Below are positions 9,355 to 32,812 of a stretch of 37,807 bases of DNA, one piece after another (position 1 is the stretch's first letter; the number at the start of each line of letters is the position of its first letter). A program made the position numbers and the translations under genes. Location of the stretch: positions 1 to 37,807 of the IMG/VR virus record IMGVR_UViG_3300031976_000938. One strand, given 5' to 3'. The notes below the pieces were generated by a model. That model saw nothing but the letters and a program-made list of their open reading frames with translations, was not told the DNA's origin and made no database searches. The stretch comes from a virus.

Positions 9355-10110
9355 ATGTCTAAACCATTCATTCAGTGGATGGGCGGCAAGCGCCGCCTGG
9401 CCAAACACATTCTGCCGAACTTCCCTGACCACCAGTGCTACGTTGAGCCCTTCGCGGGCGGCGCGGCGCTGTTTTTCATGAAGCAGCCGAGCAAAGTGGA
9501 GGTGATCAACGATACCAATAGCGACCTGGTTAACTTGTACCGCGTGGTGCAGCACCACCTGGAAGAGTTCGTCCGCCAGTTTAAGTGGGCGTTGGTCTCC
9601 CGCGAGATATTCGCGTGGGAGAAGCTCAAGCACGTTGACACGTTGACGGATATCCAGCGCGCCGCGCGGTTCTACTACCTGCAGCAGCAAGGGTTCGGCG
9701 GTAAGCTCAATTCCAACTTTGGCATCTCGACCACGTCTAGCCCTGGCCTGAACCTGCTGCGGATCGAGGAGAACCTCAGCCAGGCGCACCTGCGGCTCTC
9801 GCGCGTGTTCGTCGAGAACATGGACTGGAAAGCGGTCATGAAGCGCTACGACCGGCCGCACACACTGCACTATCTGGATCCGCCGTATTGGGCGACCGCT
9901 GGCTATGATTGCGAGTTCCCATTCGAGGAGTACGAGGCGATGGCCACGCTTGCGCGGGAGGTGCAGGGGAAGGTGATCATCTCGATCAACGATCACCCTG
10001 ACATACGCCATGTATTCGATGGGCTGCGGATCGAGGAGGTGTCGCTCAACTACACGGTGGGCGCGAGTAACAGTAAGAAGGCCAAGGAGCTGGTGATTTA
10101 TAACTGGTAG
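9355..10110 (+). CDS. dam: DNA adenine methyltransferase, Dam (D12 class) family
   Basis: N-terminal WMGGKRRLAKHILPNFP...YVEPFAGGAALFF (AdoMet motif) and catalytic LDPPYW motif. AAGGA RBS. Confidence 0.9.
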   Translation: MSKPFIQWMGGKRRLAKHILPNFPDHQCYVEPFAGGAALFFMKQPSKVEVINDTNSDLVNLYRVVQHHLEEFVRQFKWALVSREIFAWEKLKHVDTLTDIQRAARFYYLQQQGFGGKLNSNFGISTTSSPGLNLLRIEENLSQAHLRLSRVFVENMDWKAVMKRYDRPHTLHYLDPPYWATAGYDCEFPFEEYEAMATLAREVQGKVIISINDHPDIRHVFDGLRIEEVSLNYTVGASNSKKAKELVIYNW

Positions 10111-11592: not shown

Positions 11593-11721
11593 TTAGCGCC
11601 GCGGGCGACGACGTTTAGGTGATCCCATCTCTTCGAGGATCTCGATCAGGTAATCCGCCAAAGCGAACAGGTAGCGGATCGTTGCCACCAGGAAGCGGCC
11701 TATCTGTTTGAGCGCTTTCAT
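11593..11721 (-). CDS. small ORF, 42 aa: amphipathic/hydrophobic helix plus poly-Arg tail (not in the ORF track)
   Basis: Hand translation: MKALKQIGRFLVATIRYLFALADYLIEILEEMGSPKRRRPRR. Its ATG overlaps the TGA of the upstream gene (ATGA) and it exactly fills the gap between two called genes. Confidence 0.45.
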   Translation of the reverse strand: MKALKQIGRFLVATIRYLFALADYLIEILEEMGSPKRRRPRR

Positions 11722-11984
11722 TGTCCACCTCTCAGTGCCGCGTGGGCGTCTTTCAGGTGTTGGCCAGTAAGGGTGAGGGTTCGCTCGCTTCCTGGCTCAC
11801 GAGCGGTGTAGAAACCGTCTAGGCAGCGCTTTTCGCGCAGACGCTTGGCCATAACGTCACCGTTGCCGCTAGGGCGTCGGTATTCCCATGCCTGGGCAAA
11901 CGGCGCGAGGGCGGTTTCTAGCGCCTGTATGCGCGCCTGCTGGCGTTCGAGCGCTTGCTCGATGCGTGAGATAGTGTTGCTCAT
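11718..11984 (-). CDS. hypothetical protein (88 aa, N-terminal coiled coil)
   Basis: Track ORF with ATGA overlaps at both ends. Confidence 0.7.
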   Translation of the reverse strand: MSNTISRIEQALERQQARIQALETALAPFAQAWEYRRPSGNGDVMAKRLREKRCLDGFYTAREPGSERTLTLTGQHLKDAHAALRGGQ

Positions 11985-12130
11985 GCTGACGCCCCCAGCA
12001 GCCTTAGCAGGCTGCGAGAAACGCAGGCAGGGGTGTTTTCATCGGTGGCGTAGCGCGTGACGAGTTGCCGGTGCGCCAGCACGTTTTGCAGCGTTATTCT
12101 GCGGATCGTGGTAATCTCTTGCTGAGACAT
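11981..12130 (-). CDS. small ORF, 49 aa (not in the ORF track), first gene of the coupled operon
   Basis: Hand translation: MSQQEITTIRRITLQNVLAHRQLVTRYATDENTPACVSRSLLRLLGASA. GAGGA upstream; its stop overlaps the next ATG (ATGA). Confidence 0.4.
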   Translation of the reverse strand: MSQQEITTIRRITLQNVLAHRQLVTRYATDENTPACVSRSLLRLLGASA

Positions 12131-12200: not shown

Positions 12201-12521
12201 TTAGGGGTCGTCGGCCAGTATTCGGTCGATGTCGCCCACTTCAAAGCGGCCTTCACCGCGCCGATATTTTTCAAAAAGATCCTGCACTGCTTCATCTAAA
12301 AATGTTTTGACTGGCACGTTATCGCGACTCTTAGCACGCATCATTGTCAGCTTGCTGTGTGTGTCAGGGTGGGTGTCATACGGAACTCGCCGCAGCTTCA
12401 CTTCTTCTTTCACATCGCGCATGGCGCGCTCTACATGCTTAGGCGCTTCCTTCGGCGCTTCTGTTGCGGCTTCCTTAGCCGCCGCAGGCTTGCGCGTCGT
12501 TAGTTTTTTGCGTTCAGCCAT
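12201..12521 (-). CDS. centromere-binding protein, ParG/omega-like ribbon-helix-helix (type Ib ParB analogue), 106 aa
   Basis: Start MAERKK at 12521 overlaps the parA stop (ATGGCTGA). Basic, low-complexity N-terminal tail, then LRRVPYDTHPDTHSKLTMMRAKSRDNVPVKTFLDEAVQDLFEKY, which matches the beta-alpha-alpha pattern of TP228 ParG by eye. Confidence 0.7.
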   Translation of the reverse strand: MAERKKLTTRKPAAAKEAATEAPKEAPKHVERAMRDVKEEVKLRRVPYDTHPDTHSKLTMMRAKSRDNVPVKTFLDEAVQDLFEKYRRGEGRFEVGDIDRILADDP

Positions 12522-13149
12522 TGAGAGCCTCCAGAATTTCCTTACCCAGCGCTTCGATCTCTTGGCGAGCTTTGTCACTGGCGGGTAGGTCCATCACGCT
12601 TCCGCCTTTGGCGCAGTCTGCAAACGCCACGCGTGAGGTGGTCAGTGCTGAAAAAACGGGCAGATCGTATTCAGCCAGAGCGTCGCGGACTTCGCGCCCC
12701 AGGTGCGTATTCTTGATCGCTCGTGACACTACAAATGCCGCCTTGGGCTTTCCGTCAGTTATGTCTTGTCGAGCGTGGATCAGATCAACGACATTCTCAC
12801 AGGCGTATATATCGAACGGGCTGGGCTGACAGGGGATCAGCACGAGGTCTGCAGTCTTGATCGCGGGCGTGATCAGCTCACTGATTTGCGGCGCGCCATC
12901 CAGTATCACGTAGTCGCAGCCACCGGTCAGGCGGGGCAGGTCGCGAGCGACTTGCTTGCCCATGCCCATTACTGGGAAAACGTCCTCGCTTTCGCGTGTC
13001 TCGCTCCACTTGGTAGCACTTCTTTGTGGGTCGATATCTACAAGCGCCACTTTATAGCCTTGCTGGTGTAGCCAGCAGGCCACATTGGTGGCCATTGTGG
13101 TTTTGCCTGCCCCACCTTTTTCGTTTAGAAAGCCAATAACCTTTGTCAT
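12514..13149 (-). CDS. parA: partition ATPase ParA (deviant Walker A, small type Ib form), 211 aa
   Basis: MTKVIGFLNEKGGAGKTT Walker A motif. GAGGAGG RBS upstream of ATG 13149. The longer track ORF (to 13215) reads through the repeat array and lacks an RBS. Confidence 0.9.
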   Translation of the reverse strand: MTKVIGFLNEKGGAGKTTMATNVACWLHQQGYKVALVDIDPQRSATKWSETRESEDVFPVMGMGKQVARDLPRLTGGCDYVILDGAPQISELITPAIKTADLVLIPCQPSPFDIYACENVVDLIHARQDITDGKPKAAFVVSRAIKNTHLGREVRDALAEYDLPVFSALTTSRVAFADCAKGGSVMDLPASDKARQEIEALGKEILEALNG

Positions 13150-13177
13150 TGGTTCATACCTCCTCGGTTTCTGTGCC

Positions 13178-13217
13178 GTACAATAGTACATTAGCACAAA
13201 AGTACAAAAGTACAAAT
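13178..13217. repeat. array A: five tetramer boxes at exact 8-bp phasing (GTAC aata GTAC atta GCAC aaaa GTAC aaaa GTAC aaat) in the parA promoter region
   Basis: Boxes start at 13178, 13186, 13194, 13202 and 13210, each followed by a 4-bp A/T spacer. Read directly from the sequence. Confidence 0.7.
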
Positions 13218-13479
13218 ACTATTTCACATGCCATATATGGCGCTTTCCTCGCGCCGATCCCTTCTAAACCTGCCGTGAACCGCTAGCCACGAGCCTTGCA
13301 GGCTGTAAGCGAGAGCGCCGCTCGCTACCAGTCCCTTTCATACACAAGCCTTGTTGCTGCCTTCTTACCTATCCCTGCCACTACTAGCGCCTTATCCACT
13401 CAATTCGATAACTAATCCATTTAGCGAAAAAGCACCGCCAATAGTAGCGGGCTAAATATGTATGCAAGCCAATAAACCA

Positions 13480-13509: not shown

Positions 13510-13529
13510 TACACCCCTACCTATAGATA

Positions 13530-13603
13530 GGGCCACCTATGTATGCATACCCACCCCATACTATACGTATAGTATGGGGTGGGTATGCATACATAGGTGG
13601 CCC
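13530..13603. repeat. telomere resolution site (telRL-type): 74-bp perfect palindrome
   Basis: GGGCCACCTATGTATGCATACCCACCCCATACTATAC | GTATAGTATGGGGTGGGTATGCATACATAGGTGGCCC. The dyad centre lies between 13566 and 13567. All 37 positions of each arm were checked by hand. It lies 133 bp upstream of the protelomerase gene. Confidence 0.85.
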
Positions 13604-13610
13604 AATATAC

Positions 13611-13722: not shown

Positions 13723-13736
13723 ATGAGGGCGAGAAA

Positions 13737-15299
13737 ATGAGCGGTGAATCACGCAAAAAGGTAGATCTCGGCGAATTGATAGAATGGTTGCTGAGCGAGA
13801 TCAAAGAGATCGACGCCGATGAGGAATTGGCGCGAAAAGAGAAAACCAAGCGGCTGACGCGGCTGGCGCGTAGCTTCAAGAGCAAGCTACACGACGACAA
13901 ACGGCGCAAGGATGCTGACCGGATCGCGGTCACCACCTTCCGCCGCTACATGACTCAGGCGCGGAAAGCGGTGACTGCCCAGAACTGGCGTCATCACAGC
14001 TTTGATCAGCAGATCGAGCGGCTGGCCAGCCGCTACCCGGCATACGCGAGCCAGCTGGAGGCGATCGGCAAGCTTTCCGATATCAGCGCCATTCGTATGG
14101 CCCACCGCGAGCTGCTCGATCAGATCCGCAACGACGATGACGCTTATGAGGATATCCGGGCGATGAAGCTAGACCACGAGATCATGCGTCACCTGACGCT
14201 GAGCTCTGCCCAAAAAACCACGCTGGCTGAAGAGGCTAACGAGGTGATGGAAGAGCGGGCGGTCAACACGATCGAGCTAAATTATCACTGGCTGATAGAG
14301 ACGACTTACGAGCTGCTGAGCAATCGGGAGCGCTTGGTGGATGGCGAATATCGCGGCTTTTTCAGTTACCTAGCGCTGGGTCTAGCGCTGGCCACCGGGC
14401 GGCGGGCGATCGAGGTTTTGAAAACCGGCCGCATCACTAAGGTGGGCGAGTACGAGGTGGAATTTAGTGGCCAGGCCAAAAAGCGCGGCGGCGTCGATTA
14501 CAGCGAGGCTTACCACATCTATACGCTAGTGAAGGCTGACCTGGTTATCGAAGCCTGGGACGAGCTGCGATCGCTGCCGGAAGCCTCCGAGCTGCAGGGC
14601 ATGGAAAACAGCGACGTAAACCGGCGCACCGCCAAAACCTTGAACTCACTGACCAAGCGAGTTTTTGACGACGAGGCTCGCGTGTTCAAAGACAGCCGCG
14701 CGATCTGGGCACGCCTGGTGTTTGAGCTGCACTTCACCCGCGACAAGCGCTGGAAAAAAGTCACCGAGGATGTGTTCTGGCGCGAGATGCTTGGCCATGA
14801 GGACATGGACACCCAGCGCAGCTACCGCGCGTTTAAGATCAATTACCAGGAGCCTGAACAGGCTGACGAGGAAGATCACGAACACGGCAGCCGCCTGGAA
14901 GCGCTGCGCGCCCTGGACGGATCCGAGCAGCTTGAAAGCAGCGATGCTATGGCAAGGGTTCATGCCTGGGTTAAGTCGCAGATCGAGAAGGAGCCCGACG
15001 CCAAAATCACCCAGTCATTGATCAGCCGGGAGTTGGGCGTTTACCGGCCTGCCATCAAAGCGTACCTGGAGCTGGCGCGGGAGGCGCTCGACACGCCAAA
15101 CGTTGACATGGATAAAGTATCGGTGGCGGTGCCCAAGGCGGTGGCCGAGGCTAAGCCCCGGTTGACTCCCCACCAGCAAGGGGATGGCCGGTGGGGTTGT
15201 GTCGCTTCGATTAACGGGATCGAGGTGGCTCGGGTAGCCGACCAGGCAGGAAGGATCGAAGCGATGCGAGCCGCTTACAACGCGGCTGGCGGGCGCTGA
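13737..15299 (+). CDS. protelomerase (telomere resolvase, TelN/TelK family)
   Basis: 520 aa. ...FFSYLALGLALATGRRAIEVLKTG... and LGHEDMDTQRSYRAFKI (His...Tyr active-site pattern of Tyr-recombinase-like resolvases). Adjacent to the palindrome. Confidence 0.9.
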   Translation: MSGESRKKVDLGELIEWLLSEIKEIDADEELARKEKTKRLTRLARSFKSKLHDDKRRKDADRIAVTTFRRYMTQARKAVTAQNWRHHSFDQQIERLASRYPAYASQLEAIGKLSDISAIRMAHRELLDQIRNDDDAYEDIRAMKLDHEIMRHLTLSSAQKTTLAEEANEVMEERAVNTIELNYHWLIETTYELLSNRERLVDGEYRGFFSYLALGLALATGRRAIEVLKTGRITKVGEYEVEFSGQAKKRGGVDYSEAYHIYTLVKADLVIEAWDELRSLPEASELQGMENSDVNRRTAKTLNSLTKRVFDDEARVFKDSRAIWARLVFELHFTRDKRWKKVTEDVFWREMLGHEDMDTQRSYRAFKINYQEPEQADEEDHEHGSRLEALRALDGSEQLESSDAMARVHAWVKSQIEKEPDAKITQSLISRELGVYRPAIKAYLELAREALDTPNVDMDKVSVAVPKAVAEAKPRLTPHQQGDGRWGCVASINGIEVARVADQAGRIEAMRAAYNAAGGR

Positions 15300-15611: not shown

Positions 15612-18600
15612 TCAGTGGTGCATAGGGGTCAAGCTAGTTAACTTTTTGCGCATATATTCAGCAGCATATTCAAGCGTCCACGCTAGATGCCCGGTTGCCA
15701 TCTCGTTGAAGCGGCTTAGTATTTCAGGGTTTAGGTTTGAGACCACATCCGCAAGCGGCATGGCCAGCGGCAGCTCCCGGGCCACTTCATACAGCCGCTG
15801 GATCACTGTCGTGTTGCAGTGGATCTCGTCCGCCGTGTTCCGCTTGTGCATGCCCGCTGCGAACTGAATAGCCCAAGCCAGTTGGTCCAGGTCAACGTGG
15901 CCATCGATCACGGCCTGCCGCGTTTCTTCCGGTAGCGCCCTGACCGCATCCACAAGCGACGTGTCCAAACTGAGGGGGTTTGAAGCTACCACGGCGGCGG
16001 CGTAGAGTTTTTCGCTATCGCCGAGAGAGGGATACCTTACTTCTGCTGCTGCTACCCCATCACGCAAAGTGTCCCTATGGCCTGAATCCGCGTGGTTGTC
16101 GGCTTCGTTGGCGGTTTCACGGTGCGGCGCGGCCATCGGCTGGTGGATGCTAGCGGCTTCGTGAGTGGTCAGGCTGTGCACGCCGCGTTCGGCGCGTAGG
16201 CGCACGTAATACATGACCTCTTCCCATGATTGCTCGCTGATCGATAGCACGTTACGGCCGCTGCTCTTACGCTTGTGTACGGCGAGGCCCAGGCGGTCCA
16301 TGATGGATTTAACAAACGAGGTGGCGCATTTCGGCGCTGCTTTAGGGTTAATGTACTGGCCGATTTTGAGCGCGTTATAGAGCTCGATAGCGGCCTGATT
16401 GGCCAGCAGCGTGTCGCGTACTTCGCGGCACTGATCAACATTGAATTCACCCTCGCCGGTGAGGGGATCCACACCCAGCGTCTCAAACACTTGGTTAAGC
16501 AGCCGGTGAACGGGTTTTTTCCAGCGGTGGCGGGTCAGCGTCACGCGGGCTTTGCGCTGCGCCTTGTCGTAAGCGTCGGCCTGGGCCTCAGTCGCCTGGA
16601 GCAGTTCGATAGCGGTTACGTGACGGATGCCCTGGTCGTCATAAAAATCGACGTGCTGGTCATCGATCTCGGGCACGCACAACTGGTGCTCGATGTGATG
16701 GCGGTCGATCTCCGACTGTTCCGCCTCGGACTTGATCTCCTGGCGGCTGAGGCGTGCGAAACGCTCATCATCCGGGGTTTCGACGCTATAAAGGATGTCC
16801 AACCGGCGCTGGCGTACCATAACGCCCGCCGTTTTACGGTTGGTGCGGCTCGCGGCTACTTCGCTTTCGTTAGTCGATAGGCGGTTAACTTGGTAGCCAT
16901 CCGCGATCAGCATCAACAGCAAGTGATTAGCAAAATCGTTACGCGCGCGGTTCTCGCCAGTGCTGCAGCTGAGGAACATTTCATCAAAGACCGTTTTGGT
17001 ACGGCGCAAAACGATCTCGGTGTCGGTCTCGTCAAAATCACAGCTGAGCTCGTCGGCGGCGATCAGGCCGCGGAAGAGCGCTTCGCGGTCGGTCTCACGC
17101 ATCACGCGTGAGATGCCGATGCCCACTACATAGTGGCGGGCAGTGCGGTCGCGCCGCATCATCTGAATGGCGTCAGATGGGCTCACCGTCTGGCCGCTGA
17201 AGATGCCAAAATGGCGCGTAAAATGGGGCGTGGTGATCGACACGCCGCTGGAGATCGCGGGGCTATAAATCAGTACGTCATAATTGACGGCCTCGTCGTT
17301 GGGCCGGTCGAGAAAGCGCTCGGCATCCGGGTTTGCCTTGCTCTCTTTGTGAACCAGCAGCACCTTGGCGTCTGGGCGTTTCTCCTCAATCATCACAGCC
17401 AGTTTTTTGGCGCTTTCAGCGCTGTCGTTAGCGATCAATACGCGCTCACCGGCTACCGCTGCATCAAGGGCTTTTTGCCAGACGCTCTCATGATCAGCGT
17501 GATCGATACGGATGTGGTCGTTGGCAGCGTCCACTTCGATTATGTGGATCGGCTCGCCGGGGCGTGCCATTTCGCAAAGCTCAATCAGTGAATCGTTAGC
17601 ATCCGCGTCGCACATCAACACCTGGCGTGCTGACTGCATTGCTTCGACCAGACCATCCATTACGCGCGTGGGCTGATCAACCGGGCCTGTGGCAATGTGG
17701 CGTAACACCTGGCTTGCTTCGTCGATACACAAAGTATCAACGGTCGTGAACCATGAGCGGCCATCGCCGTTATGAAATTTGGGGTGAGTAATTGAGTTAA
17801 CGCAGCAAGCCAAGTGGGATACATAAGGCATTTCGGCTGCAAGCACATTGCGATAGTGCTGGATTAGGTTTTCCGTTTTGGGCTTGCCGTTCTGGTCATA
17901 AACAACATTCCCTTTTTCATCCAACACAATATTCAGTCGGTGAGCTGCGTCGCCAACGAGTGAAACACGGTGGGCGATATAGGCGGATTTAGACGACTGC
18001 TTTAGTAGCGGTGCTATCAGTTTTTCGGTTTTACCGGCCCCCATCGGCGCGCGAACGATGACCACTCCATCTAAGGATTGAACCATGTGGCGGATGTGAT
18101 CGGGCAGCAAAATATTGCCGTGAGCAGCGCGAACGCCAGGCACTTTATGATAGTTAACGTTCGGGCGTTTCAGACCTTCAGGGGTGAAGCTGCGAAGGCC
18201 AGCGGCGCTTTCCAGCTTCTTTTTTGCCAGCCAGCAAACACGGCTGAGCAGGCGGTGACGGTTGCACGGTAGACCCTGGTTGAACGCAGCGCAGACGGTA
18301 CGGAAAACGGAGCGGCCTGTGTATTTCGTCGGTGCCAGTTGCATGCCTGCGTTGATCGCTTTCAGCGCTTCTTCCATGACGTTCATCTGGCCGGAGGCTT
18401 TGACCCGCTGCAGGCAGTAATCAAAGAACGCCTTTTCAACCGTGACTTTGCTCGCCCGCGAGCGAAGCGCTTTGGCCATGGCATCCAGGCCGATCAGGCA
18501 GTGAACATCATTCCAGTCAGTTGGATTTTTGCCGGTGGCCAGCGCTTCAGTCAGATCGTCGACATCGGGTAGCTCTTCCCAGCACGGCATCACGCTGCGC

Positions 18601-19661
18601 ACTTCTAACTCGCGGCCAACTTCTAGGGCGCGTAGCAGTCCGGCATTACCTGCCATGGGCTTCCAGCAGTCGTTATCTGCCGCATTGATCGGGCGCAGCT
18701 TGTCATTCCAGCGCTTGTACGCGCGTAGCACCTTGGGCAGGTTCTGAGCGTTCATCGCTACGATGACGCCGCACTGCTCGCCCTTGATCGCCGTTTCAGC
18801 CAGCCAGATGCTGGCACCGGTGGCGAAACCTTCACAGCTATAAACGCGCTTCGCGTCGAGGTCACCGATCAGCAGGTGAGCGCCGTCGAACTGACCGCCA
18901 CGCACGGCCACGGTGTATTTTTTGAACTGCGGGTATAGACGCTGCAGGCCGCGATAGTCGCCGTCGATGCCGTGCAGGACAAAAGCAACGAACTCGCCGT
19001 GGCGGTCGCGCATGCGTTTGAGCGTGACGACATCGATGATGCTGCCGATCTGCTTTGCTTCCAGGTAAGGCTCGCTGCCGTCCGCGTCGCCCAGTAGCTC
19101 GACGGTGTCGAACTTGCCCGGCGCGTATTCAAATGTGTGGGCCCCACCGCGATAGAACGCTTGCTCATACGCTTCATGCTCGCCCTGCAGGCGTGCCTGC
19201 TCGATGCGTTCCTGACGTTCTACCTCAGCCATGCGCGCGGCGCGCTCCGCGCGCCGTGCTTCCTGCTTGGCTAACCAGGCGTCGTGCTTGGGGTCAGTCG
19301 CTTGCCCGCCTTCGCGGCGGTGAAGCTCAAGCAGTGCGTCATAACCTGACCAAACAGCGTTATAACCGCCCTGGGCCAGGGTGTGAAAATTGACATGGGG
19401 AAATTCGATGCCGTTGCGGGCTTTCTTGAGCGAGCCGAAAACCGCGACGCGATGGCGTTCGCCTTTAGCCAGGGTGGGGATGCGACCCCGGTGCTTTTTG
19501 TCGTCGAGGCGAAGATCGGATGAGAGCGCGTCCCAGTCGACGGAGACTTCAGCAGCAACGTGGGCAATTTCTGAGTGACAATAATCAAGCAGCGCGTGGG
19601 GGTCGCTGCGGAAACGTTCTTCGTAAAAACTGGCTAAACTCTGGCGTGTGGAGCTGGTCAT
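15612..19661 (-). CDS. repA: replication protein RepA (N15 RepA-like primase-helicase), 1349 aa
   Basis: TOPRIM-like EGFATGASI...AADNDCW; Walker A APMGAGKTE; Walker B-like MCDADAND. Size and position match N15-type RepA. Start taken at MTSSTRQS (19661), because the longer track ORF reads through repeat array B. Confidence 0.9.
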   Translation of the reverse strand: MTSSTRQSLASFYEERFRSDPHALLDYCHSEIAHVAAEVSVDWDALSSDLRLDDKKHRGRIPTLAKGERHRVAVFGSLKKARNGIEFPHVNFHTLAQGGYNAVWSGYDALLELHRREGGQATDPKHDAWLAKQEARRAERAARMAEVERQERIEQARLQGEHEAYEQAFYRGGAHTFEYAPGKFDTVELLGDADGSEPYLEAKQIGSIIDVVTLKRMRDRHGEFVAFVLHGIDGDYRGLQRLYPQFKKYTVAVRGGQFDGAHLLIGDLDAKRVYSCEGFATGASIWLAETAIKGEQCGVIVAMNAQNLPKVLRAYKRWNDKLRPINAADNDCWKPMAGNAGLLRALEVGRELEVRSVMPCWEELPDVDDLTEALATGKNPTDWNDVHCLIGLDAMAKALRSRASKVTVEKAFFDYCLQRVKASGQMNVMEEALKAINAGMQLAPTKYTGRSVFRTVCAAFNQGLPCNRHRLLSRVCWLAKKKLESAAGLRSFTPEGLKRPNVNYHKVPGVRAAHGNILLPDHIRHMVQSLDGVVIVRAPMGAGKTEKLIAPLLKQSSKSAYIAHRVSLVGDAAHRLNIVLDEKGNVVYDQNGKPKTENLIQHYRNVLAAEMPYVSHLACCVNSITHPKFHNGDGRSWFTTVDTLCIDEASQVLRHIATGPVDQPTRVMDGLVEAMQSARQVLMCDADANDSLIELCEMARPGEPIHIIEVDAANDHIRIDHADHESVWQKALDAAVAGERVLIANDSAESAKKLAVMIEEKRPDAKVLLVHKESKANPDAERFLDRPNDEAVNYDVLIYSPAISSGVSITTPHFTRHFGIFSGQTVSPSDAIQMMRRDRTARHYVVGIGISRVMRETDREALFRGLIAADELSCDFDETDTEIVLRRTKTVFDEMFLSCSTGENRARNDFANHLLLMLIADGYQVNRLSTNESEVAASRTNRKTAGVMVRQRRLDILYSVETPDDERFARLSRQEIKSEAEQSEIDRHHIEHQLCVPEIDDQHVDFYDDQGIRHVTAIELLQATEAQADAYDKAQRKARVTLTRHRWKKPVHRLLNQVFETLGVDPLTGEGEFNVDQCREVRDTLLANQAAIELYNALKIGQYINPKAAPKCATSFVKSIMDRLGLAVHKRKSSGRNVLSISEQSWEEVMYYVRLRAERGVHSLTTHEAASIHQPMAAPHRETANEADNHADSGHRDTLRDGVAAAEVRYPSLGDSEKLYAAAVVASNPLSLDTSLVDAVRALPEETRQAVIDGHVDLDQLAWAIQFAAGMHKRNTADEIHCNTTVIQRLYEVARELPLAMPLADVVSNLNPEILSRFNEMATGHLAWTLEYAAEYMRKKLTSLTPMHH

Positions 19662-19679
19662 TTGTTCGTTTCGCTCTAT

Positions 19680-19715
19680 GTACTTTTGTACATTCGTACT
19701 TATGTACAAATGTCA
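19680..19715. repeat. array B: GTAC tttt GTAC attc GTAC ttat GTAC aaat GTCA, 8-bp phased, in the repA promoter/leader
   Basis: Boxes start at 19680, 19688, 19696, 19704 and 19712. A minus-strand TTGACA (19711..19716) overlaps the last box. Confidence 0.7.
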
Positions 19716-23692: not shown

Positions 23693-23991
23693 CAGCCAAC
23701 TGCACCCACTGCCAGCACCCACCGGAGCGCCGTGAAAAGGACGGTGCCCTGCTGCTGATCTGCCCAGTGTGCAACAACCGTGGCGAGGCCAGCACTAACC
23801 ACGACTGGGCGGTAGCGTCCTGGGGCCAGGTCAACCGCACCGACCTGCCCTTCTGCTGTGAAGGTAAGCCGGTGCGCTTTAAGCAGCGTAAGCAGGAATG
23901 GTTCGGCGGCTGCACCGGTTGCGATAACCGTGTGGGTGGTTTTATGTCGTTGCAAGGCGCGGTGGCTGGCTGGGCGCGGCGTTTGCGTTAG
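23689..23991 (+). CDS. Cys-rich protein with two Lar-like (restriction-alleviation type) zinc-ribbon modules
   Basis: CTHCQ...CPVCN...AVASWGQ and CCEG...CTGCDN...AVAGWARR. Each half has CxxC...CxxC followed by an A-x-x-W-x-x-R tail, as in Lar-family proteins. Confidence 0.6.
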   Translation: MTANCTHCQHPPERREKDGALLLICPVCNNRGEASTNHDWAVASWGQVNRTDLPFCCEGKPVRFKQRKQEWFGGCTGCDNRVGGFMSLQGAVAGWARRLR

Positions 23992-24062
23992 TACAAAAGT
24001 GCTTTAGTACGAATGTACATAGGTGGGTTAGTTCGTTTGTACTTGTTGACAAAAGTCCGTAC
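23991..24062. repeat. array C: nine 8-bp phased boxes (GTAC, GTGC, GTAC, GTAC, GTGG, GTTC, GTAC, TGAC, GTCC) overlapping the late promoter
   Basis: Boxes start at 23991 and every 8 bp up to 24055. Four are perfect GTAC and the rest keep 2-3 of 4 bases. Confidence 0.65.
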
Positions 24063-25849: not shown

Positions 25850-25872
25850 AAGCCCAGCAACCGCGCACATTA

Positions 25873-25932
25873 GTACACAAGTACAAATGTACAAACGGCC
25901 TTTTGTGAGAAAGGACGTTTCTACATTTGCAC
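25873..25932. repeat. array D: GTAC acaa GTAC aaat GTAC aaac, then five degenerate boxes (GGCC, GTGA, GGAC, CTAC, GCAC) in the same 8-bp phase, upstream of terS
   Basis: Perfect boxes at 25873, 25881 and 25889. Degenerate phased boxes run from 25897 to 25929. Confidence 0.55.
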
Positions 25933-25977
25933 CTAATCACGGCCGCGCGCCTTAGTCCTTTCTGCCGGAGCTATCCC

Positions 25978-26550
25978 ATGGGCGAGATCGTTAGCAAAAA
26001 GATGTTTGCCAGGATGGTCGGTAAAAGTGAGCGCTGGATAGGCAATTGGATCGAAGAAGGCATGCCGACGGCAGGCGGCGGCGGTAAGGGGCGTGTGCTT
26101 GAGATAGATACCGAAGTGGCGATCGACTGGATGGTTCGCCGCGCTGTGCGTCGGCAGGTCGGTGATGAAGATGAAGACGAAGACGGCGTCGGTTCGGCCG
26201 GTGCCGAGGATCGACTACTGAAAAAAGCGCGGCGTGAAAAGCTGCAGATTGAAATAGATTTGGCGCGCCGACGCCTGGTGCCGCTGGATGCGGTCGGGAG
26301 GATCCTGCAGGGGGTGGGCGCGGTGTTCGCTACCCAGCTCGACTCCCTGTCGAGTCGTTTAGCATCTGATTTGGCGGTGATCGATGACCCAGCAAAAGTT
26401 CGAGAGCGGATCCACGCCGAGACCCGCCGTATCCGTGGGTCTACTTCCGAACGACTTGACGATGCAGCATCGGAGCTCGTTGCAGAGCTTGACGCGCTTG
26501 ATTCGATTGACGGCGTCGATGGTGAAGGCACCGCCGCCGAGGACGAGTGA
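25978..26550 (+). CDS. terminase small subunit, lambda Nu1 family
   Basis: FARMVGKSERWIGNWIEEGMPTAGGGGKGRVLEIDT parallels lambda Nu1 LADIFGASIRTIQNWQEQGMPVLRGGGKGNEVLYDS. GGAG 8 nt upstream of ATG 25978. Confidence 0.85.
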   Translation: MGEIVSKKMFARMVGKSERWIGNWIEEGMPTAGGGGKGRVLEIDTEVAIDWMVRRAVRRQVGDEDEDEDGVGSAGAEDRLLKKARREKLQIEIDLARRRLVPLDAVGRILQGVGAVFATQLDSLSSRLASDLAVIDDPAKVRERIHAETRRIRGSTSERLDDAASELVAELDALDSIDGVDGEGTAAEDE

Positions 26551-28513
26551 CGAGTGGGCGCGCGACAAGCGGATCATGCCACCAGCAGCGCCGGTACCGG
26601 GGCCGTTTAACCCTGACAGCAACCCGTACATGAAACCGGTGGCGTGGGCATTCGGCCAGCCGCAGTTTCGCCGCGTGACGTTCGTCATGGGCACGCAAAT
26701 GGGCAAGTCCGTCACGATGGAAAACGTGGTTGGCCATCGCCTGGATGAAGATCCGACACCTGTTCTTTACGTAACGCCGACTAAGCCGCTGATAACGAGC
26801 ACAGTCGAGCCCAAGTTTATGGATATGTTTCGGGAGTGCGCCGCGCTCTGGCGGAAATACGACAAGCGCCGCTCGACCCAGTTCACGAAGTGGATCGGTG
26901 GCACCAAGTTTCGTTTTGCGTGGGCAGGCTCGCCCACTGAGCTCGCGGCCGACTCTGCCGGTTTGATCCTGGTCGACGAAGTAGACCGGATCGTCAACAC
27001 CGGCGAAGGCGACACCACTGAGATCATTGAAGCGCGTGGCGATGCCTACGTGGATTCAAAGGTCGGCTATACCGCGACGCCGTTACGTGGCCGGGTAAAT
27101 AAGCGTAAACATCCAGACACCGGTCTGGAGCATTGGCAAGTGGGCAAAAAGGGCGCGGTAACATCGAAAGTCTGGCGGCTCTGGCAGTCAGGAACGCGCC
27201 ACGAGTGGGCGATCCCATGCCCCAACTGTCTCGACTACTTCATCCCGCATTTGAATTTGCTGTGGTGGCCAGGTCAAGGCCAGCGCGACGAATGCACGCC
27301 AGACGTTGCTGAGCGAGAGGCCCGGCTGATTTGTTTCTGCTGCGGCGAAGGTATCGAGGACAAATATCGTCCCTGGATGAATGCTCGCGGCGTTGCCGTT
27401 GCGCCTGGTCAATCAGTCACTAAGGCGCGCCGCGATGGCGACCAGGTGCTGCCCGGTGAAGTCACCGGCACATCGGAAACCGAAGGATCGAGCCACTACA
27501 GCTTGTGGGTATCCGGGCTGGTCAGCTTCGCGGCTAAAAAATCATACGGCTTTCTAGCTAAGAAGCTCTTGGAAGCGCAGCGATCGGGCGACCCCGCAAC
27601 GCTCATGGGCGTCACAAATACCGGCTTTGGTCAGTTGTTCGCGGAAGTCGGCGACGTGCCAACGTGGGAGGAGATCCGCTCTATGCGTTGGGCCTACGCC
27701 AGTGGCGAGCTTGTGCTGCCGGATCCGCGACAGATCTTCTGCACCATCGACGTGCAGAAAAACCGCCTGGAATACACCGTGCGCGCCTGGTTTACCGGGA
27801 TGGGTTCACAGCTGCTCGAGGAGGGCGAACTCTGGGGCAATACCGACGAGGACGCGGTATGGGATGACCTGAGCGAGCTGATCGACCAAGAGTACGGCGG
27901 TCACCCTATCAACGAAACCGGCATCGATATCGGCTACCGCGATGACCAAGTGTTTGCCTTCATCAATGCTCATAAGGGTCGCGCTATAGCGCTTAGGGGG
28001 CGAGAAAAGCTCGATAAGCCCTTTAAAAAGTACCTTGTGGAAGTTGACCGCAAAGGCAAAACCCGCAAGCGCGGTGACGCCTACTGGGCGTTTGACTCGC
28101 CGCTGGCCAAGCGCTGGGTGCATAGCCGTATTAGCCGCGCGCAAAGCGGCGAGGCTGACCGCTACCCCGGTTGGTGGCTGATCCCTACGGATGTTACCGA
28201 CGACTACTGCAAACAGATCGTGGGCGAGGAGTGGAGCGAAGAGACCGGCACTTATAAGCAGGTCGGTGAAAACCACAAGCTCGACTGCGAGGCGATGCAA
28301 TACATCATGGCGCTACGCGCGAAACTGCACCGCCGAAAACGCGGCGCGCTCACCATGGGCGATCTAAAACGCCTGGCTAAAGGTGAGAGCGGCGATCCAG
28401 TTGAGCAGGTCGACCCGCCGGATAGCGAAGCACTCCCGGCACCACCTACCGATGCCACGCCACCGGCTAAGCCGAAAAAGCGCGGTCGATTCAACATTAA
28501 GAAACGGCGGTAA
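26462..28513 (+). CDS. terminase large subunit, lambda gpA family
   Basis: From M at 26462, MQHRSSLQSLTRLIRLTASMVKAPPPRTSDEWA aligns with lambda gpA MNISNSQVNRLRHFVRAGLRSLFRPEPQTAVEWA. Walker A-like GTQMGKS. ATG 26519 is an alternative start with a lambda-like 32-nt overlap. Confidence 0.9.
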   Translation: MQHRSSLQSLTRLIRLTASMVKAPPPRTSDEWARDKRIMPPAAPVPGPFNPDSNPYMKPVAWAFGQPQFRRVTFVMGTQMGKSVTMENVVGHRLDEDPTPVLYVTPTKPLITSTVEPKFMDMFRECAALWRKYDKRRSTQFTKWIGGTKFRFAWAGSPTELAADSAGLILVDEVDRIVNTGEGDTTEIIEARGDAYVDSKVGYTATPLRGRVNKRKHPDTGLEHWQVGKKGAVTSKVWRLWQSGTRHEWAIPCPNCLDYFIPHLNLLWWPGQGQRDECTPDVAEREARLICFCCGEGIEDKYRPWMNARGVAVAPGQSVTKARRDGDQVLPGEVTGTSETEGSSHYSLWVSGLVSFAAKKSYGFLAKKLLEAQRSGDPATLMGVTNTGFGQLFAEVGDVPTWEEIRSMRWAYASGELVLPDPRQIFCTIDVQKNRLEYTVRAWFTGMGSQLLEEGELWGNTDEDAVWDDLSELIDQEYGGHPINETGIDIGYRDDQVFAFINAHKGRAIALRGREKLDKPFKKYLVEVDRKGKTRKRGDAYWAFDSPLAKRWVHSRISRAQSGEADRYPGWWLIPTDVTDDYCKQIVGEEWSEETGTYKQVGENHKLDCEAMQYIMALRAKLHRRKRGALTMGDLKRLAKGESGDPVEQVDPPDSEALPAPPTDATPPAKPKKRGRFNIKKRR

Positions 28514-28516
28514 ACC

Positions 28517-29032
28517 ATGGAACCGAAAAAACTGCACGCGGGCGATTCTATCGCCTGGGGCCGTGCCGTGCCTGAGTACCTGGCCAGCGCTGGCTGGTCA
28601 CTCAGCTATGTACTGGTTGGCCCGCAGGTGATTGAGATTGAGGCGTTTAGCGATGGTGACGCCTACGCCGTTGAGATTGCCGCTTCGACGACGCGCGATT
28701 GGGCACCAGGGCAGTACAGCTGGGCCGCTTACATGAAAGGTCCAGGTGATCAGCGCCGCACGATCGACACCGGCTTGATCACTATCGCGCCCAACTTACT
28801 GCTGGCAGAGCCAGGCGATGTACGCACCCACGCGCAGCGGATGCTGGCACTCATCCAGGCGGCGCTTGAAAAGCGTATTCCGAAAGACCAGCAGAGCTAC
28901 GAGATCGACGGCCAGCGGCTTGATCGCATCCCAGTAGAACGGCTGATGGAGTTACGCAAGATGTACCGCCGGGAAGCCAATCGCGAGCGTGGTGGTTCGC
29001 CACTGGGTCAATTAATTCACGCAAGGATGTAA
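28517..29032 (+). CDS. head-tail joining protein with gpW-like C-terminal domain and an extra N-terminal domain
   Basis: It sits between terL and the portal, as lambda W does. The C-terminal SYEIDGQRLDRIPVERLMELRKMYRRE resembles lambda gpW [26 protein letters not shown]. Confidence 0.65.
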   Translation: MEPKKLHAGDSIAWGRAVPEYLASAGWSLSYVLVGPQVIEIEAFSDGDAYAVEIAASTTRDWAPGQYSWAAYMKGPGDQRRTIDTGLITIAPNLLLAEPGDVRTHAQRMLALIQAALEKRIPKDQQSYEIDGQRLDRIPVERLMELRKMYRREANRERGGSPLGQLIHARM

Positions 29033-29035
29033 CCC

Positions 29036-30592
29036 ATGGGCCTACTCAAGCGAGCAGCTCGCGCGTGGAAGCTCGCTGGGCAGGCCGATCGTGCGCCTGC
29101 TTTGCCAGCACGTAAAGAGCCAACGCTCACGCGCAATTTCAAAATGGCCAAGTCGTCACGCCTGAACAATTCATGGACAGGTCGCAGCAGCGCCGGTGAC
29201 GCCGACCACATCATCTATAAAGATCACGAAACACTACGGCAGCGGGCGCGAGAGCAGTCGATCAACTCTGGCTATGCCAAACGGTTTTACCGCCTGCTGC
29301 GCCAAAACGTGATCGGGCCGCACGGCATCACTATGCGTTCAAAGGCGTTGAAGCCTGACGGCTTCGCCGACGACAAGATGCGTCGGGCGATCGAACAGGA
29401 GTTTAAGCAGTGGTCGAAGCGCGGCAACTGCGACGTCACCGGGCGCTATAGCTTCGTGACGTTCATGTGGTTATGGGTCGAAACCCTGGCCCGCGACGGT
29501 GAAGTCATGGTGCGCATCTTGCGCAACTGGCCTAACCGCTGGGGGTTTGCGCTGCAGATTATCGAGTCGGATCTGCTCGATACCACGCTGAACACCTGGT
29601 TAAGCAATGGCAACCGGATCCGCATGGGCGTTGAGGTCGACGAGTGGGAAAAGCCGATCGCCTACTGGCTGAAAAAGTCACATCCAGGCGACACCTTTGA
29701 ACGGCCTGCCGAGCAGGACTATCAGCGGATCCCCGCCGACGAATTACGCCTCACGTTCGACCCCTGGCGACCCCACCAGTCGCGCGGCTTCACTTGGACG
29801 CATGCCGGTGCTAACGATCTTCACCACGTTGAAGAGTACGCCGGTGCGGAGTTAGTCGCGGCTGAGCAGGGCGCGAAGATCACCGGCCACTACGAGCAGG
29901 ACGCCGAGTGGGTCGACCCGCCAGGCGGTGAAGATGACGACGACGCCGACCAAGGCGTGATTATTGAAGAAATAGAGGCGGGCAGTGCTCGCCTCTTGCC
30001 GTATGGGGTGAAGTTCAAGCCCTACGACAACAAACACCCTGCGACCAACTTCGCACCGTTCACTAAAGCGGCGGTGCGCCGCATCGCCGGGGCGTTTGGC
30101 CCTTCCTATAACCGTTTAGCTCATGACCTTGAGGGCGTTAGCTTTTCAAGCCTACGCAGCGGTGAGATCGACGAGCGCGATTTTTATAAGTGCGTACAGC
30201 AATTTGCCATCTCAGAGGTATTGGAGTGGATCGGCGAAGCCTGGATGGACTGCTCAATGCTCAAGGGCACGTTGAAGATCCCCCCGCGCTCCTGGGATCG
30301 GCTCTCGCCAGTTGAGTGGCTGCCGCGCGGTTGGGATTGGGTCGATCCGAAGAAAGACAGCGACGCCGCTAAAACCGGCATCGAGACGCTGACCGACTCA
30401 GTCTCGGACATCATGCGCCGCAAAGGGCGTGACCCTGATGATGTTTACAACCAGATCAGCGAGGACATCCGCCGGTTCGAGCGTCTCGGTTTACCCAACC
30501 CCTACGCAAAAGCCCTCAAGGCCAACGGAGTAACCAATGCCGAAACCGACGACGACGAAGACGAAGAGCCAAACGCCACCGGCACCGACTGA
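29036..30592 (+). CDS. portal protein, lambda gpB family
   Basis: SINSGYAKRFYRLLRQNVIGP resembles lambda gpB VRNNGYAANAIQLHQDHIVGS, and AGAFGPSYNRLAHDLEGVSFSSLRSG resembles AAGLGVSYEQLSRNYAQMSYSTARAS. Confidence 0.9.
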   Translation: MGLLKRAARAWKLAGQADRAPALPARKEPTLTRNFKMAKSSRLNNSWTGRSSAGDADHIIYKDHETLRQRAREQSINSGYAKRFYRLLRQNVIGPHGITMRSKALKPDGFADDKMRRAIEQEFKQWSKRGNCDVTGRYSFVTFMWLWVETLARDGEVMVRILRNWPNRWGFALQIIESDLLDTTLNTWLSNGNRIRMGVEVDEWEKPIAYWLKKSHPGDTFERPAEQDYQRIPADELRLTFDPWRPHQSRGFTWTHAGANDLHHVEEYAGAELVAAEQGAKITGHYEQDAEWVDPPGGEDDDDADQGVIIEEIEAGSARLLPYGVKFKPYDNKHPATNFAPFTKAAVRRIAGAFGPSYNRLAHDLEGVSFSSLRSGEIDERDFYKCVQQFAISEVLEWIGEAWMDCSMLKGTLKIPPRSWDRLSPVEWLPRGWDWVDPKKDSDAAKTGIETLTDSVSDIMRRKGRDPDDVYNQISEDIRRFERLGLPNPYAKALKANGVTNAETDDDEDEEPNATGTD

Positions 30593-32528: not shown

Positions 32529-32550
32529 TCATTAACTAGCGGGCAGGTTT

Positions 32551-32572
32551 GGGGGCGTAAGCCCCCTTTTTT
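32551..32572 (+). terminator. intrinsic terminator after the capsid gene
   Basis: GGGGGC-gtaa-GCCCCC followed by TTTTTT. Confidence 0.8.
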
Positions 32573-32590
32573 ACGCAACAAGGAAACGAT

Positions 32591-32812
32591 ATGGCGACTG
32601 CAAAACCCTCCTCTCGTGTTGCTGTTGTGTCCCTGGGCGGGCACTGGCAATACGGTGATTTTGTAAAAAAAGGCGCGCTGACGCACATGGCCAAGCGCGA
32701 AGCGAAAGAGGCCATCGCAGCCAAGGTGGTGCGTGAAGCAACCGAGGAAGAGATCAAAAAAGCGGCAGGCACGGCAGCAAAAGGTAAAACGGCCGCTACA
32801 GGCGACGAGTAA
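32591..32812 (+). CDS. small Lys/Ala-rich head-associated protein (unknown function)
   Basis: AGGAAA RBS; 73 aa. Assigned by position only. Confidence 0.6.
   Translation: MATAKPSSRVAVVSLGGHWQYGDFVKKGALTHMAKREAKEAIAAKVVREATEEEIKKAAGTAAKGKTAATGDE

Follow-up and report, generated by a model that had tools for sequence, protein, structure and literature searches.

The window analysed here, the whole stretch of 37,807 nucleotides of the IMG/VR virus record IMGVR_UViG_3300031976_000938, belongs to the phiHAP-1/VP882 family of linear phage-plasmids. It shares 79% DNA identity with phiHAP-1 and carries the telRL palindrome, a protelomerase and RepA, which bears out its earlier description as a hairpin-telomere phage-plasmid. 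A putative partition operon, consisting of parA and a small downstream gene, lies next to telRL (Table 1), and four arrays of phased tetramer boxes are distributed over the element. The centre of the palindrome falls at 13566/13567, such that array 1, located upstream of parA, becomes subtelomeric after resolution at telRL; the contigs of related elements terminate 270-520 nt upstream of parA. A search of the whole window against Rfam detected no known RNAs.

Table 1. Coordinates of the partition operon, the phased box arrays and neighbouring features in the window
Feature	Position	Strand	Remarks
DNA methyltransferase gene	9355..10110		encoded by the element
Candidate centromere-binding protein (CBP) gene, 106 aa	12201..12521	-	8-nt overlap with the parA stop
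parA	12514..13149	-	small Walker-type partition ATPase of type Ib, 211 aa
Array 1, predicted parA operator/probable centromere	13178..13213	.	GTAC GTAC GCAC GTAC GTAC, 8-bp period
telRL, 86-bp palindrome, protelomerase target	13524..13609	.	43-nt arms, 95% complementary
Protelomerase gene, adjacent to telRL	13737..15299		Pfam ResT-TelK_cat and TelK domains
repA, primase-helicase-type replication protein of telomere phages	15612..19662	-	preceded by array 2
Array 2, four GTAC boxes	19680..19707	.	8-bp period; 18-45 nt before the repA start codon (ATG, 19662)
Array 3	23991..24042	.	GTAC GTGC GTAC GTAC GTGG GTTC GTAC in one 8-bp register; late-leader position
Array 4	25865..25892	.	GCAC GTAC GTAC GTAC; 35 nt before terS (terminase small subunit)

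The parA product has a deviant Walker A motif (KGGAGKT) near its N-terminus and is without an N-terminal HTH domain; its ATG, 29 nt from array 1, is preceded by the ribosome-binding site GGAGG. It matches the NCBIfam model NF041546 (ParA_partition) over its full length with 236 bits (cut-off 180), the Pfam families AAA_31 and CbiA, and PHROG 164 (ParA-like). Its best solved relatives are the structures of TP228 ParF (4dzz and 5u1g), with an E-value of 1.8e-30 over residues 3-207 versus 2-203, and the previous assignment to the type Ib ParA proteins, which are small ATPases, is thereby upheld. The coding region of the 106-aa protein overlaps the parA stop in the sequence ATGGCTGA. The locus shows three hallmarks of a type Ib system, viz., a ParA of ~200-220 aa with a deviant Walker A and no N-terminal HTH (here 211 aa), a small non-ParB gene immediately downstream of parA, in a layout kept in all relatives, and a series of short repeats ahead of the operon, here the five boxes at 13178-13213. 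As for the type Ia SopABC/ParABS systems, which combine a large ParA bearing an N-terminal regulatory domain with an HTH ParB-family CBP, ParA is too short at only 211 aa, and Pfam and NCBIfam scans detected no ParB domains in the small protein.

The 106-aa protein starts with a basic, disordered tail (MAERKKLTTRK..., residues 1-23 having a pLDDT <50 in the AF2 model) that keeps the motif K-L-x-T-x-R-P-x-R. The tail is followed by a helix (residues 28-38), an extended segment (43-51, RRVPYDTHP), a second helix (52-64), the loop SRDNVP, a third helix (71-88) and a conserved FEKY-RGEGRF segment at the C-terminus. In the AF2 monomer model obtained with a 119-sequence MSA, the core has a pLDDT of ~90 and segment 43-51 is extended, not called beta. 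The protein, whose VP882 homologue is gp52, belongs to PHROG 15913 ('unknown function'), its family comprises 136 clusters at 90% identity, every one of them unannotated, and every database record examined lists the small protein as 'hypothetical' or of unknown function.

Profile comparisons lend moderate support to an RHH-type (ribbon-helix-helix) core in this protein. Using hhalign, the 119-sequence profile of the family could be aligned to the CopG-family RHH protein 7by2 (73.6%, E 2.9e-5) over the strand, helix A and helix B, with DNVP of the 106-aa family paired with RNIP of 7by2. The same CopG-family protein is the top match (E 0.022) when the profile of family alignment A1 is searched against the PDB, although the more diverse alignment A2, searched against PDB sequences, retrieved noise only, with CopG falling to E 0.23. 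Among 23 family members, the commonest weak Pfam matches are Antitox_RHH (17/23) and RHH_3 (10/23), all of them under the gathering thresholds and mostly covering helix B alone; a match to PF20605 is precomputed for one member, and the 106-aa protein itself has nothing above threshold in Pfam or NCBIfam. Foldseek, queried with each of the two AF2 monomer models, returned no significant RHH match from the PDB or the BFVD viral library; this counts against the RHH assignment, but the search is uninformative for a small obligate-dimer fold with long disordered parts. No match to the Pfam ParG family (PF09274) was obtained in the 23 members at E-values up to 10, and hhalign gave the family a probability of 0.4-0.5% against ParG (1P94; sequence checked against the PDB) and of 5%, over helix B only, against omega of pSM19035 (sequence checked against 1irq). 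The likeness to ParG is thus one of architecture only: of the initial annotation as a 'ParG-like RHH protein', the arrangement of a tail plus an RHH-like core is supported, but kinship to ParG is not detectable in the sequence (hhalign 0.5%).

Counted upstream from the parA ATG, array 1 occupies nt 29-64, and the telomere resolution site is ~355-390 bp away from it. Its GTAC boxes at 13178, 13186, 13202 and 13210 and its GCAC box at 13194 are in an exact 8-bp register and the A/T spacers read AATA, ATTA, AAAA, AAAA and AAAT, exactly as had been noted before (GTAC x4, GCAC x1, 8-bp spacing); the array comprises five boxes, since the flanking slots, TCTG and ACTA, are not boxes. The pattern GTAC-N4-GTAC (GTACNNNNGTAC) occurs 8 times in the window versus 0.12 +/- 0.33 times in 100 dinucleotide shuffles, none of which reached 8. 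A scan requiring at least 3 of 4 phased slots to be in the set {GTAC, GTGC, GCAC}, with A/T-rich spacers, retrieved exactly four arrays in the window, as against 0.01 per shuffled genome. These are the arrays listed in Table 1, the third being called at 23991-24018 and extending to 24042, and each of the four lies between genes; in the mechanical ORF list alone, two seem 'coding' owing to spurious TTG-start extensions. The shuffle control that the initial annotation had named as a possible refutation thus does not refute it.

The surroundings of the three other arrays differ. Near array 2 a TTGACA hexamer is present on the repA strand (19716-19711), along with a divergent promoter-like site with its -35 at 19724; the repA homologues of phiHAP-1 and VP882 are annotated 'replication'. 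Array 3 begins at the stop codon of a Lar-like gene and abuts a TTGACA (24046-24051), downstream of which are two terminator hairpins and then a holin gene, such that the region resembles a late (PR'-like) leader. Array 4, before terS, probably adjoins the cos region: its equivalent in phiHAP-1 (39134-39165) is ~80-110 bp from the right end of a record that starts at terS. An array is also found upstream of terS in the P. aeruginosa element pPHPALO418 (13542-13589). It had been suggested that the same array recurs at three other promoters; all three loci exist, but only two of them (repA and the late leader) are at clear promoter-type positions, the other being by terS. A promoter scan called no consensus sigma-70 promoter over arrays 1, 3 or 4, and an operator overlapping a promoter is therefore suggested by position. 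Scans of whole genomes identified five arrays in phiHAP-1, four in VP882 and three in pPHPALO418, with at most 0.07 in shuffles. In the GenBank record of phiHAP-1, arrays are concealed inside over-extended parA and repA annotations.

The arrays were further compared among ~50 related telomere phage-plasmids of Halomonas, Pseudomonas and Vibrio, for 48 of which the sequence upstream of parA was at hand. An array of 4-7 boxes with an 8-bp period, ending ~30 nt before the parA ATG, is present at 48/48 loci, and in nearly all of them the small gene is at, or overlaps, the parA stop according to gene calls. At most of the 48 loci, the starts of parA and the small gene are 628-660 nt apart, and at others the distance rises to as much as 758 nt, the higher values reflecting either a longer ParA or a tblastn match that starts inside the small gene. 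The box itself varies with lineage, the classes being GTAC/GTGC, GGAC/GTCC/GCAC, GTGC, GTTC, GTAC+GGCC+TCGC and GCGT/ACGC. The other array positions are also maintained, the one before repA throughout the family. A four-box array, made of the lineage's own box, is found at the array-2 position in 12 lineages, and the position of array 3, directly 3' of the Lar-like gene, is likewise occupied in phiHAP-1 (37261) and VP882 (35730), and by ACGC/GCGT arrays in the GCGT-box lineage (13335-13374 in L078 and 11162-11233 in L081). Thus, the box differs between lineages yet shifts in step at all arrays within one genome. The fraction of repA boxes belonging to the parA box set of their own genome is 0.81, versus 0.32 across genomes (permutation p ~5e-5, with hand-defined box lists and non-independent lineages); this co-variation is confounded with phylogeny, because all genes of an element diverge together.

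Two Pseudomonas lineages have different boxes (GTTC versus GTAC/GGCC), as do two Halomonas lineages (GTAC versus GGAC), from which it follows that the reader of the box is encoded by the element and not by the host. This bears on the reading of the arrays as bent A-tract or UP-element DNA, as targets of a host nucleoid protein or as methylation- or restriction-related GTAC clusters, which we find scarcely tenable. The spacers are indeed A/T tracts, GTAC is under-represented genome-wide (83 sites in the window versus 141 expected from base composition) and the element encodes a DNA methyltransferase, but neither bendability nor a host factor would yield a box that changes within a host genus and does so in step at all arrays of an element, and GTAC-specific methylation does not generalise, since most lineages have a box other than GTAC. 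A host factor or bent DNA as such was rejected, because the boxes differ within one host genus.

The co-variation is blind to which element-encoded DNA-binding protein reads the boxes, and the arrays could instead be sites of another phage regulator (a Q-like antiterminator, a CII-like activator or an early-left small protein), with the 106-aa protein acting as the partner of ParA and contacting DNA elsewhere or non-specifically. We consider this unlikely. Array 3 immediately precedes the -35-like hexamer in the late leader, a place where some lambdoid phages have their Q-binding elements; however, Q is a lytic-phase protein, whereas autoregulation at parA and repA calls for a protein produced in the lysogen. 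Direct repeats are the targets of CII-type activators, but CII binds two repeats only, 10 bp apart, and CI has its own distinct inverted repeats. The RHH assignment of the 106-aa protein is just moderate, yet 4-7 contiguous 4-bp boxes with an 8-bp period are the signature of RHH arrays, such as those of ParG and omega, and not of HTH regulators. Moreover, the universal site of the array is the parA promoter (48/48 loci) with the small gene alongside, which is the defining type Ib layout. The arrays were also considered as CI operators and this was rejected, as the inverted-repeat motif of the cI-cII immunity region is a different one and box arrays are absent there.

A structural precedent for the way in which RHH dimers could be packed every 8 bp on (A/T)(A/T)GTAC(A/T)(A/T) is the metbox of E. 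coli. Its 8-bp units are arranged in tandem, are palindromic at the core and each take one dimer of the RHH protein MetJ, with cooperative contacts between dimers 8 bp apart. MetJ itself represses metabolic genes, depends on a co-repressor and has no ParA partner. A further parallel in layout is TP228, whose ParG binds ACTC boxes separated by 4-bp AT spacers with one dimer per box, and whose operator is also a centromere (PMC3130281). The CBP of TP228 is small, with a flexible N-terminal tail and a C-terminal RHH core, and the candidate CBP of the window is a small protein with a tail predicted to be disordered and a putative RHH-type core. In both TP228 and the window, the gene of this protein is directly downstream of that of the ATPase, and arrays of degenerate 4-bp boxes with 4-bp A/T spacers are present upstream of the operon; the geometry of array 1 is accordingly that of the published parH/OF layout (PMC3130281), in agreement with the initial annotation. 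The two systems differ in the box (ACTC in TP228, and GTAC/GTGC, which is palindromic, in the window) and in the number of boxes at parA (8+12 versus 5). In addition, the window has further arrays at repA, the late leader and terS, its 106-aa protein has an additional conserved C-terminal segment (FEKY-RGEGRF...) not seen in ParG, and its replicon is a linear phage-plasmid.

The omega protein of pSM19035, an RHH ParB, binds arrays of 7-bp repeats that overlap the copS, delta and omega promoters, with at least 4 contiguous repeats being needed (PMC9499535). As proposed below for the window, a single RHH CBP serves several separate arrays at the promoters of a parA homologue and of a replication-control gene, and omega couples partition, copy number and other functions (PMC9499535). 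Separate repeat arrays at the parA homologue and at replication genes are likewise found in the window, where their overlap with promoters is judged from position. However, the unit of pSM19035 is a 7-bp heptad (WATCACW) in place of 4+4 bp, and pSM19035 is a theta plasmid of Gram-positive bacteria (Firmicutes) and not a phage, and none of its sites is at a promoter of lytic or late genes. In N15, the centromere sites of SopAB (IR1-IR4) are scattered over the genome and not clustered (PMC7205306). N15 and the window element are both linear hairpin-telomere phage-plasmids with dispersed sites, but N15 has a large type Ia SopA, an HTH ParB-family SopB and single 16-bp palindromes, whereas the window has a small ParF-like ATPase, an RHH-type protein and tandem tetramer arrays; as the proteins are unrelated, the shared layout is convergent. 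Some of the N15 sites reportedly lie close to elements of replication and of lytic control, and Sop has been reported to influence the expression of late genes (Ravin et al. 2008).

Based on these observations, we hypothesize that 12201-13225 is a type Ib partition operon, and that its 106-aa RHH-type CBP also occupies the arrays at repA and in the late region. We consider this model probable, and the comparative data are the strongest evidence for it. Its parts would be the ParF-like ATPase, the translationally coupled 106-aa CBP and the upstream five-box (GTAC/GTGC) array with 8-bp spacing. The 106-aa protein is predicted to bind DNA and to be the binder of the arrays: on each box, one CBP dimer would put its beta-ribbon into the major groove, and adjacent dimers 8 bp apart would bind cooperatively and coat the array. 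ParG is known to stimulate ParF through its tail (PMC7308502), and the conserved basic tail of the CBP may similarly touch ParA-ATP on the nucleoid and boost its ATPase activity, thereby leading to segregation. The CBP bound to array 1 would repress parA, which would make the operon autoregulated. The same protein would occupy the arrays upstream of repA, at the junction of Q/Lar and the late (lysis) leader and beside terS/cos, and arrays 2-4 may serve as additional centromere sites and as operators that couple RepA synthesis and late-gene expression to the level of the CBP. Centromere activity, repression and ATPase stimulation are thus predictions of the model, which suggests that one small protein links plasmid inheritance with replication and lytic control.

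The number of boxes per array, 3-7, counts against this model, as at least 8 boxes are required for efficient centromere function in TP228, which has 8+12 (PMC3130281). According to a report on VP882, this element is multicopy and its maintenance needs no more than the RepA module (bioRxiv 10.64898/2026.03.16.712183), from which it follows that active partition may be dispensable in the laboratory. Both points are in keeping with a different account, in which the 106-aa protein binds the arrays solely as a transcription factor for parA, repA and the late genes, the arrays have no centromere function, and segregation proceeds by copy number or another site, or ParA acts in another process. Every array is indeed in the 5' region of a gene or in a leader, each is short against the at least 8 boxes that TP228 wants, and the multicopy VP882 is maintained by the RepA module alone. 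We nevertheless judge this account quite improbable, given that every relative has a ParF-like ATPase, its Walker A intact, in translational coupling with the 106-aa protein, and that operator arrays double as centromeres in both of the RHH systems studied, i.e., OF of TP228 and all parS sites of pSM19035, for which 4 repeats are enough. As for other candidate centromere repeats, only telomere-flanking TATGTATG-type repeats are present near the par locus, and the phased-tetramer scans yielded no further array.

VP882 and its relatives serve as a model of quorum sensing by phages and of the biology of phage-plasmids, and no description of a CBP or a centromere in VP882, phiHAP-1 or VHML was found in the literature searched, outside which lie the phiHAP-1 genome paper and Ravin 2008. 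If the partition model is true, it supplies the missing partition components of the VP882/phiHAP-1 family and predicts that a partition protein directly regulates both RepA and the late/lysis leader. It would also mean that dispersed centromere-operators have arisen independently in N15, with its type Ia system, and in telomere phages of type Ib. The notion of one small RHH protein linking partition with promoters is less new, as omega of pSM19035 and the dispersed centromere sites of N15 are already known.

More tentatively, and with rather less confidence than we place in the model of the single locus, PHROG 15913 could be a ParF-type CBP and genome-wide regulator across the hapunavirus/VP882-like family, in which diversification of box and strand sets incompatibility, or immunity-like, groups. 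On this broader proposal, segregation would be coupled with copy number and the lysis programme through the arrays at parA and repA, at the Q-dependent late leader and at cos/terS, which would form an RHH-based convergent counterpart of the dispersed SopB sites of N15, and variants of the box and the beta-strand (GTAC, GGAC, GTTC and GCGT) would let related phage-plasmids coexist. Should the partition model hold, the family would also offer a natural series of box/strand specificities for studies of RHH-DNA recognition and plasmid incompatibility. The candidate beta-strand by box class reads RRVPYDT in the GTAC, RIPLEVP in the GGAC, KKIPLLAP in the GTTC and ERVYF(N/T)G in the GCGT lineages.

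The element in the window (37,807 bp, 57.1% GC) is a hairpin-telomere phage-plasmid, as the initial annotation had held, and is of the hapunavirus type. Its 11500-14500 region shares 79% DNA identity with Halomonas phage phiHAP-1, and it carries a telRL palindrome and a protelomerase, as well as RepA, a CI-like repressor, a CII-like activator, a Lar-like gene, a holin and terS. A D12-class-like DNA methyltransferase is also encoded (9355..10110). The ParA protein matches the NCBIfam 'ParA family partition ATPase' across the whole model (236 bits; cut-off 180), and its best solved relative, over the full length, is TP228 ParF (4dzz/5u1g; E 1.8e-30); on the strength of these matches we assign it to the small type Ib ATPases of the ParF kind. 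The adjoining gene encodes a 106-aa protein that lacks any covering curated family, bears only 'hypothetical' as its database names and corresponds to PHROG 15913, labelled 'unknown function'. Directly 3' of this small gene lies a hairpin with a 14-bp stem and a T-run (12160-12191). Being on the plus strand, the T-run is misplaced for ending transcription of the minus-strand par operon, which may continue into small ORFs farther downstream (11981..12130, 11718..11984 and others).

Features of the phage-plasmid discussed in the text
Feature	Coordinates	Strand	Details
106-aa protein gene	12201..12521	minus	8-nt overlap with parA stop
parA	12514..13149	minus	211 aa
Array 1 (before parA)	13178-13213		intergenic
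telRL palindrome	centre 13566/13567		86 bp
Protelomerase	13737..15299		Pfam ResT-TelK_cat and TelK domains
repA	15612..19662	minus	1350 aa
Array 2 (before repA)	19680-19707		intergenic; 18-45 nt upstream of repA ATG
Array 3 (late leader)	23991-24018		intergenic; in register on to 24042
Array 3 leader	24046-24175	plus	intrinsic-terminator hairpins ~24100-24125 and 24147-24164; holin gene at 24198; fold z -4.2
Array 4	25865-25892		intergenic; terS-proximal

The small protein quite probably has a ribbon-helix-helix (RHH) fold. Its AlphaFold2 model, built on a 119-sequence alignment, is confident in the core (pLDDT ~90, residues 50-100) and comprises a disordered tail (1-23), a helix (28-38), an extended segment (43-51), a second helix (52-64), a short loop and a third helix (71-88), a predicted order that fits an RHH protein. 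The profile of its family aligns to the CopG-family RHH structure 7by2 over the strand and both helices (hmmsearch E 0.022; hhalign 73.6%, E 2.9e-5), with DNVP at the helix-B N-cap pairing with RNIP of 7by2. The commonest weak Pfam matches among 23 diverse members are Antitox_RHH (17/23) and RHH_3 (10/23), all sub-threshold and mostly over helix B. Foldseek searches with the AlphaFold2 models found no match, and hhalign detected no similarity of the family to ParG (0.5%) or omega (5%), the reference sequences of which were confirmed against the PDB. The description 'ParG-like RHH' given initially therefore stands for architecture and site geometry, while sequence comparison gives no support for placing the protein in the ParG family.

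The five boxes first noticed upstream of parA could be located at exactly the same positions (GTAC at 13178, 13186, 13202 and 13210, GCAC at 13194), with the spacers AATA, ATTA, AAAA, AAAA and AAAT. The word GTAC is depleted window-wide (83 sites against 141 expected) yet concentrated in four arrays, and GTAC-N4-GTAC occurs eight times against 0.12 in dinucleotide shuffles. Under a strict definition (at least three of four phased slots in GTAC, GTGC or GCAC, spacers A/T-rich), the window holds four arrays against 0.01 per shuffle. The pattern is far above chance expectation; all four arrays are intergenic and far beyond the shuffles, so the comparison of density with shuffled and coding sequence fails to refute the array reading. 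Next to array 2 lie a TTGACA (repA strand) and the -35 of a promoter-like site pointing away from repA. Array 3 abuts a perfect TTGACA, after which two terminator hairpins precede the holin gene, a layout like that of the lambda PR'/6S leader, where the Q antiterminator acts.

Two neighbouring features are recorded here in their own right. One, on the plus strand (19724-19905), has the promoter-like site divergent from repA (TTGAAC-17-TATACT), the -35 of which is only 16 bp from array 2. About 150 nt of structured sequence follow (fold z -3.5), closed by a strong terminator hairpin (19867-19896); this stretch lacks an Rfam match, contains a tgttagcgggcagg motif kept upstream of repA in all lineages and may encode a small RNA between repA and cI. 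The cI-cII intergenic region (20676-20742) contains nested inverted repeats, CATTCTGCATA/TAAGCAGAATG and CTTATTGGAA/TTCTAATAAG, which are likely immunity operators unrelated to the tetramer boxes.

Comparison with relatives provides what we consider the decisive evidence. Scans with the small-protein family yielded 46 loci in genomes of IMG/VR and GTDB, to which the phiHAP-1, VP882 and vB_VpaM_MAR records were added; relatives with complete contigs measure 36-41 kb and come from Halomonas, Pseudomonas (including P. aeruginosa), Vibrio and Shewanella. At each of the 48 loci covering the region, parA has in front of it an array of four-bp boxes (4-7 of them, 8-bp period), with spacers T-rich in the parA direction and its end ~30 nt before the ATG. 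The box is GTAC/GTGC in the window and phiHAP-1, GGAC/GCAC/GTCC in Halomonas loci L007 and L008, GTGC in L025, GTTC in many Pseudomonas-type contigs, alternating GTAC/GGCC/TCGC in L009, L030-32 and L041, and GCGT/ACGC in L043-48. In every lineage with sequence, a four-box array in the lineage's own box lies directly upstream of repA. The fraction of repA boxes found in the parA box set is 0.81 within a genome and 0.32 across genomes, and 0/20,000 permutations reached the observed agreement, the box lists being hand-defined and the lineages not independent. Contigs L078 and L081, of the most divergent lineage (GCGT), show ACGC/GCGT arrays in three places: at parA, at repA and directly on the 3' side of the Lar-like gene. 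The last is also the position of array 3, phiHAP-1 37261 and VP882 35730. A terS-proximal array like array 4 occurs in phiHAP-1 and P. aeruginosa pPHPALO418. Inside the early-left operon, ~2 kb farther downstream than the par genes, phiHAP-1 (23805-23832), VP882 (22705-22732) and L008 (12214-12265; four perfect GGAC boxes) have a further array, with no counterpart in the window.

Since the boxes differ between elements of one host genus, their reader is element-encoded, with a specificity that has evolved together with all its sites; the same change of boxes makes it extremely unlikely that the arrays are non-specific DNA features or host-factor targets. Their co-variation would also be compatible with a different element-encoded reader, whether Q-like, CII-like or unknown, which we regard as unlikely given that the position where arrays are universal is the parA promoter, adjoining the small gene, that the 4+4-bp tandem geometry is an RHH signature and that the CI region carries a different motif. 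The candidate β-strand of the small protein differs with box class, which is suggestive, albeit confounded with phylogeny: RRVPYDT accompanies GTAC, KKIPLLAP GTTC, and ERVYFNG or ERVYFTG GCGT, with RIPFEVP or RIPLEVP where GTAC gives way to GGAC.

The par arrangement matches that of TP228, where ParG, a flexible tail joined to an RHH domain, binds arrays of degenerate ACTC boxes with 4-bp AT spacers as one dimer per box and is the repressor of parFG at the operator OF, with both OF and parH serving as centromeres (PMC3130281), its tail contacting and stimulating ParF (PMC7308502). By analogy, dimers of the 106-aa protein would bind each box via the ribbon, with cooperative coating of the array; the basic tail, conserved in the family (consensus K-L-x-T-x-R-P-x-R), would engage ParA, and array 1 would be operator and centromere at once. 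VP882 is multicopy and maintained by its RepA module alone, as would suit a regulator devoid of centromere function, though such a restricted role is quite improbable for the small protein. Its binding at arrays 2 and 3 would presumably either hold down RepA synthesis and late transcription while the phage is lysogenic, or provide extra centromere sites. Late gene expression in N15 was reportedly found by Ravin in 2008 to be influenced by the Sop system.

The interpretation in the initial annotation is thus supported overall, with corrections as to ParG homology and precedents. Control of other promoters by a small RHH partition protein, implied there to be new, is preceded by the RHH ParB omega of pSM19035, whose 7-bp repeats form arrays overlapping the copS, delta (parA) and omega promoters, four contiguous repeats being enough for ParA activation (PMC9499535); the extra arrays would let the present system work similarly. 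Dispersed centromeres in a telomere phage are likewise already known, the N15 SopB sites IR1-IR4 being separate and not clustered (PMC7205306), a layout to which the present system would be a counterpart. What appears to be new, no description being found in the literature as far as searchable, is a large unannotated family of predicted centromere-binding proteins confined to phage-plasmids of the hapunavirus/VP882 type, the tetramer-box arrays that go with it at parA, repA, the late leader and terS, and the diversification of the box lineage by lineage.

Telomere resolution places array 1 ~355-390 bp from the hairpin end. Contigs of many relatives (L010, L012, L013, L016, L018, L023, L026 and others) stop 270-520 nt upstream of parA, consistent with this subtelomeric location. 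Two copies of the small gene are present in each of four 75-79-kb 'circular plasmids' of Pseudomonas (PLSDB H12-H15), which are probably head-to-head assemblies of a ~38-kb hairpin-ended linear prophage. In the phiHAP-1 GenBank record (NC_010342), parA (25853..26617, 254 aa) and repA (28949..32992) start upstream of the arrays, which are thus buried within annotated coding sequences (26517-26552 and 32953-32980); in the relatives, as in the window, the conservation of the ParA N-terminus and the ribosome-binding sites point to genes shorter than annotated.
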